IMG/VR virus record: IMGVR_UViG_2874945390_000003
Direction: 5' to 3' (one strand)
Source of the DNA: a virus
Taxonomy: Duplodnaviria > Heunggongvirae > Uroviricota > Caudoviricetes
DNA: 32,454 nt
Made by a program: the position numbers. Below, one piece after another: positions 1-21,000 of the stretch. Position 1 is the first letter of the stretch; every line of letters starts with the position of its first letter.

Positions 1-3000
1 TTATTTGATTTCAATTTTGTCCCACTCCCTGCCTCTGTCATCACGATACTGTGATGCCATGGTGTCCGACTTGTGCCCGAGAAGATGTTGAGCAAACTTA
101 TCGCTTATCTGCTTCTCATAGAGTCTTGCAGACAAACTGCGCAACTCGTGAAAGGTAGGTGGATCCCCTTCGAAGGAAAGACCTGATGCTTTTCGTGCGC
201 GCATAAAATACCTTGATACTGTGCCGGATGAAAGCGGTTCACGACGAGTAGATGCAATTATGGTTTCTCCGCCAAGAATCTCTTTGCATTTATCAAGTGT
301 TTCCTTCATTGATATCCCGAGAGCATCAACATGCAATGTTTGAAGTGTACTGGCAATAGCGGACACTACCATTTGTTCTTTTTTTAAGCAGCCATCTGAT
401 GATATTTTTCCCTGAAGGCTGCCGGGGAGATATTCCCCAGACGAGAGTGACGACGCTGACGATTGTAGAAAATCTCAATGTATTCCCGTATTACTGAGAT
501 GGCTTCATCCCGGTTATTAAAACGATAGTGGCTCAGGCTCTCATTTTTCAGCGTTCCCCAGAAGCTTTCCATCGGAGCGTTGTCGTAACAGTTACCTTTA
601 CGCGACATTGATGTTTTCAGACCAAACTGCTCCTGTATGACCCGGTAATCGTATGCGCAGTACTGTGAACCTCGATCAGAGTGGTGGATTAGCCCGGCAG
701 GTGGGCGCTGGCTCCTGAGCGCCATAAACAGGGCTTTACCTGTCAGCTCTTTTGTCATGCGCTCTCCCATGGCGTAGCCGACAATTTCGCACGTATAAAC
801 ATCTTTGATGCCAGCGAGGTACAACCATCCCTCCTGTGTGGCAACATACGTCAGGTCCGCCACCCAGACCTGATTTGGTGCTGTAGGAGCGAACGTCTGG
901 TTCAGCAGATTTGGCGCAACTGGCAGATTGTGGTTCGAGTTCGTAGTCGCTCTGAACTTGCGTTTCTGCTTACAGCGTAGCCTTAGCTCCTTACGAAGAC
1001 GTGCCAGTCGGTCACGACCAACGATGATGCCATTCTCTGCCAGCTCCGTCTGGAGCCGCCGGGTTCCATATGTTTCGCGAGTGCGGATATGTGCCACCTT
1101 AATCTCCAGTTTTAGCCGCTCATCACTTTGTTTTCTGTCTGAGGGTTCATGCTGTACCCAGTTGTAATAACCGCTCCTGGATACACCAAATACCTGACAC
1201 ATCGCTTCAACAGGGAATTGTTGTCGCCATTGTTCGACTAACGCGTATTTTTCAGCGACTCCTGTGCAAAATACGCTGTTGCTTTTTTTAATATATCTCG
1301 CTCAAGGCGAGCTTCATTTAACGCCTTACGCAGTTGCAGAATTTCAGATTCCAGTTCAGCCACCGTGCGGGAACCAGGAGTACCGAGCCCTTTTCTGGCG
1401 GCGGTAACCCATTGTCCTAAAGTGCCTTCAGGAAGGGATAATCGGGAAGCGCCTTCACTGATCGAAAGTTGATTTTCAAGAACCGTTCTGACAGCTTCGG
1501 CTTTGAACTCTTTAGAGTAACGTTGGGTTTTTCTGCTCATTATTAGCTCCTTCTGATGCCATTCTATTTCAGGAAGGAGTGTCCGTTAAACTCAGGCTAC
1601 CTCATATTGCTTCCGGTGAAATCAGTCATACAGCCCCCCGTTTATTATTTATCTCCTCAGCCAGCCGCTGTGCTTTCAGTGGATTTCTGATAACAGAAAG
1701 GCCGGGAAATACCCAGCCTCGCTTTGTAACGGAGTAGATGAAAGTGATCGCACCTACCCGGATATTATCGCGAGGATGCTTCATCGCCATTGCTCCCCAA
1801 ATACAAAACCAATTTCAGCCAGTGCCTCGTCCATTTTTTCGATGAACTCCGGCACCATCTCGTCAAAATTCGCCATGTACCTTTCATCCCGCTCAACCAC
1901 GACATAATGCAGGCCTTCACGCTTCATGCGCGGGTCATAGTTGGCAAAGTAGCAGGCATCTTTTCGCGTCACCCACATGCTGTACTGCACCTGGGCCATG
2001 TAAGCCGACTTTATGGCCTCGAAACCACCGAGCCGGAACTTCATGAAATCCCGGGAGGTAAACGGGCATTTCAGCTCAAGGCCATTGCCGTCACTGCATA
2101 AACCATCGGGAGAGCAGGCGGTGCGCATACTTTCGTCGCGATAGATGATCGGGGATTCAGTAACATTCACGCCGGAAGTGAATTCAAACAGAGTTCTGGC
2201 GTCGTTCTCGTACTGTTTTCCCCATGCCAGCGCCTTAGCATTAACTTCCGGAGCCACACCGGTGCAAACCTCAGCCAGCAGGGTGTGGAAGTAGGACATT
2301 TTCATGTCAGGCCACTTCTTTCCTGAGCGGGGCTTTGCTATCACGTTGTGAACTTCTGAAGCGGTGATGACGCCGAGCCGTAATTTGTGCCACGCATCAT
2401 CTCCCTGCTCGATAGCTCTCACGTCGATCCCGGTACGCTGCAGGATAATGTCCGGTGTCATGCTGCCACCTTCTGTTCAGTGGCTTTTTGTTTCAGGAAT
2501 CCAAGAGCTTTCACTGCTTCGGCCTGTGTCAGTTCTGACGATGCGCGAATGTCGCGGCGAAATATCTGGGAACAGAGCGGCAATAAGTCGTCATCCCATG
2601 TTTTATCCAGGGCGATCAGCAGAGTGTTAATCTCCTGCATGGTTTCATCGTTAACCGGAGTGATGTCGCGTTCCGGCTGACGTTCTGCAGTGTATGCGGT
2701 ATTTTCGACAATGCGCTCGGCTTCATCCTTGTCATAGATACCAGCAAATCCGAAGGCGAGACGGGCACACTGAATCATGGCTTTATGACGTAACATCCGT
2801 TTGGGATGCGACTGCCACGGTCCGGTGATTTCTCTGCCTTCGCGGGTTTTGAATGGTTCGCGGCGGCATTCATCCATCCACTCGGTAACGCAGATCGGAT
2901 GATTGCGGTCCTTGCGGTAAATCCGGCATGTGCAGGATTCATTGTCCTGCTCAAAGTCCATACCATCAAACTGCTGGTTTTCATTGATGATGCGGGACCA

Positions 3001-18000: not shown

Positions 18001-21000
18001 AATTTCGCACGTATAAACATCTTTGATGCCAGCGAGGTACAACCATCCCTCCTGTGTGGCAACATACGTCAGGTCCGCCACCCAGACCTGATTTGGTGCT
18101 GTAGGAGCGAACGTCTGGTTCAGCAGATTTGGCGCAACTGGCAGATTGTGGTTCGGGTTCGTAGTCGCTCTGAACTTGCGTTTCTGCTTACAGCGTAGCC
18201 TTAGCTCCTTACGAAGACGTGCCAGTCGGTCACGACCAACGATGATGCCATTCTCTGCCAGCTCCGTCTGGAGCCGCCGGGTTCCATATGTTTCGCGAGT
18301 GCGGATATGTGCCACCTTAATCTCCAGTTTTAGCCGCTCATCACTTTGTTTTCTGTCTGAGGGTTCATGCTGTACCCAGTTGTAATAACCGCTCCTGGAT
18401 ACACCAAATACCTGACACATCGCTTCAACAGGGAATTGTTGTCGCCATTGTTCGACTAACGCGTATTTTTCAGCGACTCCTGTGCAAAATACGCTGTTGC
18501 TTTTTTTAATATATCTCGCTCAAGGCGAGCTTCATTTAACGCCTTACGCAGTTGCAGAATTTCAGATTCCAGTTCAGCCACCGTGCGGGAACCAGGAGTA
18601 CCGAGCCCTTTTCTGGCGGCGGTAACCCATTGTCCTAAAGTGCCTTCAGGAAGGGATAATCGGGAAGCGCCTTCACTGATCGAAAGTTGATTTTCAAGAA
18701 CCGTTCTGACAGCTTCGGCTTTGAACTCTTTAGAGTAACGTTGGGTTTTTCTGCTCATTATTAGCTCCTTCTGATGCCATTCTATTTCAGGAAGGAGTGT
18801 CCGTTAAACTCAGGCTACCTCACTGAGCCGTAATACCATGGTGCGCTGGGTATCAGAAATGGCAGACAAACTCCGTCCTCTGTATATAGCGCTGAATGAC
18901 TATGTTCTGGAGGCAGGAAAGGTGCACGCAGATGACACTCCGGTGAAAGTACTGGCCCCGGGGAACGGAAAGACGAAAACGGGTCGTCTGTGGGTATACG
19001 TCAGGGATGATCGTAATGCGGGTTCATCCCTGCCGGCAGCCGTCTGGTTCGCGTATTCGGCAGATCGCAAAGGAGAACATCCGCAGCTCCACCTGGCAAA
19101 GTATCAGGGCGTACTGCAGGCTGATGCCTATGCAGGTTATAACGTACTGTACGAAACGGGCCGGGTGAAGGAAGCCGGGTGCCTGGCCCACGCCCGCCGA
19201 AAAATCCATGACGAGGATGTGCGCCGTCCGACAGAAATGACTCAGGAAGCGCTCAGACGGATAGCAGAGTTATACGATATAGAAGCGGAGATACGTGGCA
19301 GTCCGGCAGAGGAACGGCTTGCAGTCAGAAAAGCCAGAAGCGTCCAGTTGATGCAGTCGTTGTACGACTGGATACAGTTGCAGAGGAAAACGCTGTCGAA
19401 ACATGCGGAGATGGCGAAGGCGTTCGACTATATCCTGAATCACTGGAATGCGCTGAACGAGTTCTGTCGTGACGGCTGGGTGGAAATAGACAACAACATC
19501 GGTGAAAACGCGTTACGATCGGTGGCGGTTGGAAGAAAAAATTATCTCTTTTTCGGCTCAGACAAGGGAGGAGAAAGTGCGGCGATCATCTACAGTCTGC
19601 TGGTCACCTGCAAACAGAACGAAGTGGAGCCGGAGGACTGGTTGCGCGAAGTGATCGAGAAGCTCAATGACTGGCCGTCGAACCAAGTGCATGAACTGCT
19701 TCCCTGGAACTTCTCGTCTGTAAAATAATCCTTACGCTACGTACTTCTCGGGGCGCTTACGAATCAGCGTACTACGGGGATGTATATCGATATCATTGTT
19801 AATGGTGAACCGTGCCTGTATGGCGTGCTGTGTCTGAATAATAACCGGATTGTCCGGTACGGATACCTGCCGTTTCAGGGGGACCTGTTTTTTACCGACA
19901 CGGAGGGGAATAGTGACCCTGACTGGCGGGGGCTCGGATCCCGGTACCGGCTCTACTGGCTGTTACCTGAGGAACTGATATGAGCTACAGACAACGTAAA
20001 ATAACGGTGGAGTTCACTCTTTCAGACGGACGAACGTTTGGTAATGGCCAGGGCAATATGCTGACCATTACCGACGCAAGCTGTTTTGCCAGTATTGCCG
20101 TATATGGAGGGGTGGCTGGTACACAAATCACGCTGTATATCTGGGGAATGTCACCGGCGCATATGACGAATTTAAGCTGGCGCGGTGTGTGGCGACAGGA
20201 GCAGAGTACCGCAAATAAAATGCGGCTGTGGGCCGACGGGCGGCTTATTTTTGAAGGTGATATTACTGATGCATACGCCGACTACAACCAGGCGCCGGAT
20301 ATTCCGCTCATTCTGACAGGACAGATTCATTTTAATCTGCGTAATCAGCCGGCGGCAGATTTCAGCGCAAAGGGCGATGTTGCGGTTGCAGATATTATCC
20401 GTGCGCTGGCGTCAACTGTCGGGCTTGGATTTGAAAACCAGGGGGGCAGCCGCAGTCTGTCTGACCCGCATTTTTCCGGTAATGTTGTACAACAAATGCT
20501 GGATGTCGCTTCAGCCGCCGATATTAACATTGATCTGGGGAATGTGGAGAAAGTCACCATCTGGCCGAAAGGGCAGAACCGGAATATTCCGCCGGTACTG
20601 ATTTCGCCGGATCACGGACTGACTGGCTATCCGGTTTACACCATGACCGGACTCAGCGCCACCACGATATTCTGCCCCGATCTCTTTACTGGCAGGCCAG
20701 CGCATCTGGAATCGTCACTGCCTGATATGACGGGCGATTATACGATCACAGGGGTGATACACACCATTACTTCGCGAACCGTGGGCGGTCCGTGGAGTTC
20801 CAACTGTACCATGATGAGGGCTGAAGAAAATGGCACAACCACTCAGTAACCCGACAGACGTGAACAGCGAAATCAATGCACAGGACTTTATGCTGCGGCA
20901 GTTTCTCGGACGTCATGCGTTTATCACTCTGGGACGGGTGGTAGCCGTGGAAGAGGGATTTATTGAGGCCCGACCGATGGTAATGGGCGTTGCAGCAGAC

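Follow-up and report, generated by a model that had tools for sequence, protein, structure and literature searches.

Three nearly identical copies of the insertion sequence (IS) IS600 lie within a 32,454-nucleotide stretch of Caudoviricetes DNA (IMG/VR record IMGVR_UViG_2874945390_000003; "the window" below means this whole stretch), and they raise the question whether the window is one lambdoid prophage that lost genes around its IS copies or a product of DNA from more than one place. It is part of the Shigella boydii chromosome CP026836.1, a finished sequence of 5.1 Mb; the record is named as S. boydii in a published paper (PMC12817139). Both limits of the window are gene boundaries, position 1 falling at the stop codon of an integrase gene (int) and position 32454 at the start codon of a DinI-like gene. 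A preliminary description, made from the sequence, had read IS600 copies 1 and 3 as IS-mediated deletion or recombination joints within a single prophage. That copy 1 marks a deletion and copy 3 a recombination joint has held, but the notion of one prophage with two internal deletions has not, since the window begins beside ybhC and ends at a DinI-btsS border: it fuses the ends of two prophages from different chromosomal sites. The full account, which we consider likely, is of decay shaped by IS600, in which copy 2 was a simple insertion, copy 1 replaced deleted DNA and copy 3 is a hybrid element left by an inversion between two prophages.

The argument for two sites starts from the chromosome on either side. 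To the left, ybhC adjoins the window and is followed by ybhJ, ybhI, ybhH, ybhD and pgl, which together form the left side of the lambda attachment site (att-lambda). To the right, the window closes with the DinI-like gene (32206-32454, minus strand); btsS (yehU) lies just outside, and btsR, yehS and yehR come next. In E. coli FDAARGOS_944 (NZ_CP065613.1), the closest relative, the DinI-btsS border is the right end of a prophage integrated beside mlrA (yehV); this strain carries ipaH and is for that reason counted as Shigella-like. Its att-lambda prophage (from 4,338,297; locus L003) runs from int to the late genes on the plus strand at 4.338 Mb, while its yehV-site prophage (locus L034), at 0.87 Mb, lies on the reverse strand and passes from late genes through DinI to btsS; the two are thus in opposite orientation, about 1.6 Mb apart along the shorter arc. 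Because ybhC assigns the left end of the window to att-lambda and DinI-btsS assigns its right end to the yehV site, a joint between loci must lie inside it. The E. coli K-12 cryptic lambdoid prophages DLP12, Rac and Qin are defective remnants, each at a single site, which bear IS insertions and from which excision or morphogenesis genes have been lost; in contrast to these, the window has left and right ends that belong to two different attachment sites. These two flanks, the anatomy of the window and the 4067-bp gap at copy 1 described below are direct observations.

Where the joint lies can be narrowed by collinearity. The left part of the window matches the FDAARGOS_944 att-lambda prophage in several modules and shows no similarity to the early region of the yehV prophage of that strain, whereas positions 27525-32454 are 99.07% identical to the right end of the latter. 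Between the left and right matched blocks the only non-collinear junction is IS600 copy 3 with the fragment of ISSfl3 that follows it, and no break in collinearity with related prophages was seen from 19761 to 32454. As the sole such junction, and one without a target duplication, copy 3 is most likely the site of the inter-locus joint.

Copies 1 (341-1604), 2 (11247-12510) and 3 (17559-18822) are each 1264 bp long and share one orientation, on the minus strand; by repeat finding and direct comparison they vary at only 5 positions, of which two set copy 1 apart (IS positions 4 and 598) and three set copy 2 apart (871, 872 and 875). With copy 1 as query, identity to elements annotated as "IS3-like element IS600 family transposase" is 99.6% (1750 records, at a coverage of at least 80%), and the earlier statement that these are three same-orientation IS600 copies separated by a few base changes is borne out. 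Two transposase open reading frames (ORFs), of 100 and 272 amino acids (aa), are unbroken on the minus strand in all three; those of copy 1 match the Pfam families HTH_Tnp_1 (E=1.5e-20) and rve (E=3e-26), respectively, and the RefSeq annotation of IS600 homologues gives a programmed frameshift. The termini are imperfect inverted repeats of the form TG...CA, reading TGAGGTGTACTGG...GGACAC and GTGTCCGTTAAACTCAGGCTACCTCA. In copy 1, position 344 carries a G-to-A change at position 4 of the terminal inverted repeat (TGAAG for TGAGG), which might weaken that end for further transposition.

The three copies differ in their flanks. Copy 2 is bounded by the 3-bp duplication TAT (11244-11246 and 12511-12513), which is taken to be real because the chance of a 3-bp match is 1/64. 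Copies 1 and 3 are flanked by GTT/TAT and GGG/CTG, and on re-inspection no duplication was found around either when flanks of 2 to 5 bp were compared, as had been claimed; since the 3-bp duplication is absent, both are called recombinant joints. Among 9 distinct IS600 copies (those of the window and of loci L003, L008-L010, L025 and L040), 4 have a 3-bp duplication (AGC, TAT, GAA or GGA) and 5 do not. TATTG is the right flank of both copy 1 (1605-1609) and copy 2 (12511-12515), either by chance (about 1 in 1000) or perhaps through a target preference. In strain SJ2D an IS600 match 18 nt longer was at first taken for the same insertion in int, but this copy is unrelated: it lies in an Stx1 phage gene for an ATP-binding protein and has the duplication AGC.

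What copy 1 replaced can be stated to the base. To its left lies a lambda/434-type int fragment on the minus strand (1-340), the last 340 of 1071 nt, or the last 112 codons and the stop, standing as a remnant beside attL and ybhC; it is 99.4% identical to the int gene of phage 434 over 340 nt and covers positions 73-168 of the 172 in the Pfam Phage_integrase profile. The fragment equals positions 10001-10340 of the FDAARGOS_944 att-lambda prophage locus, exactly up to GTT, and diverges beyond. To the right of copy 1, beginning 21 nt ahead of the stop of the DUF1317 gene that follows exo, a lambdoid early-left region (1605-8489) holds, by Pfam matches, DUF1317, exo, bet, gam, kil, cIII, Nmad5, N, DUF3024, cI, cro and cII, and is collinear with positions 14408-21292 of the same locus at 99.5% identity. 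(The Nmad5-family gene adjoins N, at about 4003-4686.) Exactly 4067 bp lie between the two flank sites in this intact relative (10340 and 14408), where the window has IS600; both junctions are exact to the base, with no microhomology. The missing DNA takes in two-thirds of int (its 5' portion), xis and five other annotated genes or pseudogenes: an antA/B antirepressor, ORF6N, DUF551, an ea22-like gene and a methylase fragment. Copy 1 thus marks a real IS-associated deletion of 4067 bp, and the preliminary description was right that it joins the 3' third of int to the region just beyond exo, with loss of xis and the int 5' end.

The most likely route to this deletion would be homologous recombination between two IS600 copies in direct orientation, one at GTT in int and the other at TAT beyond exo; the product would be a single hybrid IS600 with one half of each duplication. 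We infer that recombination, rather than the action of transposase, made copy 1. The deletion could instead have been made by transposase, either by intramolecular transposition or as an adjacent deletion starting from one IS600, with no RecA-dependent recombination of two copies. The TAT flank could then be the original insertion site, the deletion running from one IS end, and a two-copy precursor was indeed not found among the contigs with the same int fragment and the complete E. coli genomes. IS3-family elements move by a copy-out, paste-in process via a circular intermediate; a new copy nearby followed by recombination would yield the same product, and since both routes end alike the sequence cannot tell them apart. 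Copy 1 shows neither microhomology nor any other signature, and we regard this variant as possible but less likely.

The int fragment was also followed in other contigs. In none of those bearing the same 102-aa int fragment is IS600 at GTT followed by the int 5' part; elsewhere the gene is cut at about int position 403 (L042 and L050) or, in L047, by another IS3-family element at about 326. In that last locus, from the Shigella-like chromosome CP044151.1, an insert of about 1.25 kb (at about 6734-7984) interrupts the same int gene, at about 14 bp from where copy 1 sits; an IS3-type transposase pair is called on it, it has no IS600 ends, and a 3-bp overlap is consistent with a duplication. A nearby IS600 in the same locus, also without duplication, joins DUF551 to a tail-fibre gene.

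Copy 2 arose by ordinary transposition, as a simple insertion that inactivates a phage helicase gene. The gene (9616-13363, plus strand) encodes a DnaB-type replicative helicase, and an 826-aa ORF is restored when copy 2 and one TAT are deleted in silico. In that protein a stretch of about 340 aa, weakly matched by Hint and LAGLIDADG, interrupts the helicase DnaB_C profile at position 33; from these profile matches the insert is a putative intein, and copy 2 sits within it.

Copy 3 joins two pieces of DNA that are each recognizable. On its left is a plus-strand nin gene (17300-17558) that copy 3 cuts 18 nt short of its stop. The earlier label "ybcO-like" for this gene fell, its YbcO Pfam match of 19.2 bits lying under the cut-off of 29.9, so that it is at best weakly ybcO-like; the joint of the gene to an IS66 transposase gene stands. 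The left flank is collinear with lambdoid nin regions, and phage Louie is 96.9% identical to it up to the junction; past that point the 91-aa gene of Louie runs on for 18 nt and is followed by RusA, NinH-like, Q, holin, endolysin and spanin genes. The DNA upstream, a nin region at 13712-17307 with Pfam matches to NinB, NinE, a HigA/HigB-like pair, two antirepressor genes and an HNH endonuclease, is partly collinear with the nin region of the FDAARGOS_944 att-lambda prophage. The HigA/HigB-like genes (HTH_3 / Gp49), a toxin-antitoxin pair, lie on the minus strand at 14337-15045.

To the right of copy 3 is a fragment of the IS66-family element ISSfl3 (18823-19760, plus strand), consisting of its last 938 bp: the C-terminal part of tnpC (DDE_Tnp_IS66, E=3e-82) and the natural right terminus. 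It is identical to annotated ISSfl3 over the 380 bp tested, and over the whole 938 bp is 99.7-99.8% identical to IS66-family copies in loci L008-L014. It stops 32 bp past the tnpC stop, as does the IS66-family copy in L004, and the terminus lies inside a baseplate plug gene. ISSfl3 is thus incomplete in the window: a fragment, not a whole tnpA/tnpB/tnpC element with both termini nor a functional member of its family. Single junctions are found again in independent assemblies: L029-L033 have the right junction of copy 2 and the left junction of copy 3, L013 has the right junction of copy 3, and L036-L039 by their coordinates begin within ISSfl3 directly upstream of the baseplate hub gene; the IS600-ISSfl3 junction as one piece was found in no complete E. 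coli genome. An IS600 in the ISSfl3 of L008 and L009 that gives the same 296-aa ORF is not the same insertion, its site being 54 bp upstream. Copy 3 is a recombination joint without duplication.

The DNA beyond ISSfl3 is of another kind. A contractile-tail baseplate module on the plus strand (19761-23871) begins inside the plug gene and comprises the 3' part of that gene (positions 37-99 of the 101 in the Pam3_gp18 plug profile) followed by genes for hub, spike, sheath initiator, baseplate J and wedge and the start of a tail-fibre gene. From 19761 on, the window is collinear, at 99.2-99.5% identity, with ipaH prophages of enteroinvasive E. coli (L004 from 19001, L005 from 9001). Those of strains RMDEC465 and CFSAN029787 share 19761-23871 at this level and stay collinear through the tail fibres, DUF4376 and, in RMDEC465, ipaH; they differ from the window in lying at other chromosomal sites (pphA/yebW and sitABCD) and in having the plug gene intact. 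The RMDEC465 prophage keeps terminase, head and sheath genes, and the CFSAN029787 stretch shows head and sheath genes.

A second IS interrupts this half. ISEc20, of the IS110 family (23872-25323, minus strand), has simply inserted into the tail-fibre gene and shares 99.9% identity with the copy annotated in the FDAARGOS_944 att-lambda locus; it was ruled out as a rearrangement joint, its flanks being contiguous in L004 (23112, then 23114). In the draft assembly L036 the tail-fibre ORF runs on for 529 nt to the contig end, where ISEc20 cuts that of the window after 69 aa, and the strain of L036 appears to lack the insertion. The rest of the window is the right end of a prophage (25324-32454), with tail-fibre, tfa, tail-fibre N-domain protein and DUF4376 genes, ipaH (29148-30791, minus strand), a methyltransferase gene, a tfa fragment and the DinI-like gene.

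A single inversion would bring these parts together. Copy 3 would descend from two IS600 parents: one in the lambdoid prophage at att-lambda, sitting at GGG in its nin gene, and one at CTG within a copy of ISSfl3 that was already lodged in the plug gene of an ipaH prophage, the right end of which abuts btsS at yehV/mlrA. Recombination between these copies, in oppositely oriented prophages, would invert the chromosome segment between them and give the order ybhC, truncated int, early genes, nin, IS600, truncated ISSfl3, baseplate, ipaH, DinI, btsS, btsR, yehS and yehR, which is the order seen. Copy 3 is therefore probably one end of a large inversion and not an internal deletion. By K-12 coordinates such an inversion would be roughly symmetric about the terminus. 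At the reciprocal joint one would expect the Q, lysis, terminase and head genes of the phage at att-lambda, unless they were lost later; they need not have been deleted at copy 3. That joint (CTG, IS600, GGG) would have on one side the 5' part of ISSfl3, ending ...GGGCGTGGAGCTG, with the IS600 end TGAGGTGTACTGGC, and on the other the IS600 end CTCAGGCTACCTCA with GGGAGGGTG, the rest of the nin gene, then RusA.

Several points weigh against this account. The reciprocal joint was not retrieved, exact-pattern scans for both half-joints giving no match in a set of species-representative genomes that probably lacks S. boydii; for that reason the inversion is something that we infer. Searching for homologues of the baseplate protein encoded upstream of the plug gene yielded nothing but a cluster representative of 91% identity, and the representatives obtained with RusA had no contig as long as this chromosome. 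Among the contigs with the same int fragment and the complete E. coli genomes, a sample that is incomplete, no two-IS600 precursor turned up, nor one with a duplication at any of the four sites (GTT, TAT beyond exo, GGG and CTG). The pairing of left with right flank across each IS600 copy depends on one complete, long-read assembly. A lambdoid early region together with this baseplate module is moreover a natural architecture, found in RMDEC465, so that phage type alone does not prove two prophages; an argument that a lambdoid half and a contractile-tail half must come from different prophages was dropped for this reason.

The last point against concerns the tail-fibre/ipaH module. Positions 25688-29927 are identical (100.000% over 4240 bp) to positions 8559-12798 of L026, a pgl-adjacent prophage of the same chromosome. 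The tract holds the 3' part of the tail-fibre gene, tfa, the tail-fibre N-domain gene, DUF4376 and the 3' part of ipaH; its two copies are direct repeats about 40 kb apart, with diverged sequence on either side, which looks like recent gene conversion rather than crossover. It shows recombination acting in this module, which is accordingly an alternative place for the joint between loci.

The nin and baseplate regions could instead have come from one prophage with a lambdoid early region and a contractile tail. Copy 3 would then be an internal deletion of about 20 kb, from RusA to the plug gene, between direct IS600 copies, and the att-lambda-yehV fusion would lie elsewhere, for example in the tail-fibre/ipaH module. 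Besides its lambdoid early region, the prophage of enteroinvasive E. coli that shares this baseplate has Q-like, lysis and terminase genes, so the gene order of the window is that expected of such a phage after deletion; the 4240-bp identity to another prophage of the same genome likewise speaks for active recombination in the module. Against this, one more rearrangement is needed than in the inversion account, and in the closest relative the late genes of the prophage at att-lambda are those of a lambda-type siphovirus. The identical tract, bordered by diverged sequence on both sides, has the look of conversion and not of crossover, and collinearity with related prophages is unbroken between 19761 and 32454. 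An origin from one such prophage is in our judgement unlikely, and we keep to copy 3 as the most likely inter-locus joint.

The right junction of copy 3 may have a wider history. The same IS600-ISSfl3 CTG junction occurs in L013 (Logan SRR30180190 contig 84, positions 1-966, corresponding to window 18795-19760), where the end of ISSfl3 leads into P2-like phage genes and not into the plug gene. It could be imagined that the IS600-in-ISSfl3 nested element is mobile, or its site a hot spot, so that it serves as a portable cassette of homology seeding inversions from prophage to prophage, with the att-lambda-yehV inversion defining an S. boydii clade; we think this quite improbable.

Two further readings carry very little weight. 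In one, copy 1 would be the inter-locus joint, only the int fragment coming from att-lambda and everything from exo to DinI from the yehV-site prophage, with copy 3 an internal deletion in the latter. Copy 1 too lacks a duplication, the number of events equals that of the inversion account, and lambdoid gene order would disguise such a joint as a local deletion; however, the int fragment and the exo-to-cII, ninB/ninE and antirepressor segments all occur, collinear and at 98-99.5% identity, in the one FDAARGOS_944 att-lambda prophage, and the early region of the yehV prophage in that strain is unrelated to the window, which makes this reading highly improbable. In the other, flanks of different IS600 copies would have been mis-paired in assembly and copies 1 and 3 would be simple insertions with duplications: short-read contigs end in IS and cannot pair left with right flanks, and the pairing is seen in only one complete assembly, but the partner half-sites of copy 1 would need the 4 kb of int-xis DNA in the genome, and CP026836.1 is reported to have the int-fragment protein at a single place, long reads easily bridge a repeat of 1.26 kb in a finished chromosome, half-site junctions are repeated in several independent samples, and IS600 copies without duplication are common in other finished Shigella-like genomes, so that misassembly is unlikely and this version of events scarcely to be credited.

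Compared as a whole with the att-lambda prophage of FDAARGOS_944, the window shares the site beside ybhC, the same int, the exo-to-cII region at 99.5% identity and the ninB/ninE and antirepressor segments. The relative differs in keeping a full int, xis, and Q, lysis, terminase, head and lambda-type tail genes, in having another replication module, and in carrying one IS600, with the duplication GGA, in its late region. Of what marks a lambdoid prophage at att-lambda, the int fragment by ybhC and the exo-to-nin gene order are present in the window, and xis, the int 5' part and everything from RusA/Q onward are absent. In agreement with the preliminary description, no Q, lysis, terminase or head gene was called anywhere in the window. 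With int truncated, xis absent, the helicase gene split by copy 2 and these genes missing, the remnant would, judging by its gene content, be unable to excise, replicate or package alone; the earlier view likewise had it unable to excise or package.

Five IS, IS600 among them, have expanded in every Shigella species, and deletions and rearrangements between homologous IS copies have been described as typical of the genus (PMC7373316); high rates of rearrangement in Shigella are documented in a further paper (PMC8072062). The window resembles such cases in its high IS load, in the IS copies without duplication at breaks of synteny and in its truncated, pseudogenised prophages, and does not differ from them in kind; what is specific to it is the IS600 nested in ISSfl3 and, as we reconstruct it, the involvement of two ipaH-associated prophages at att-lambda and yehV. 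The finding is thus a specific and unremarkable case of the IS-driven decay already known in Shigella, with nothing new in kind. The locus is better annotated as two fused defective prophage remnants than as one prophage, which has little import beyond annotation. It offers a worked example of how recombinant IS copies can be recognized by the absence of target duplications, and of how a break in synteny can pass for an internal deletion when one window is viewed alone. For the organism, the ipaH effector gene would be fixed in place, because the phage DNA around it appears unable to excise, replicate or package.

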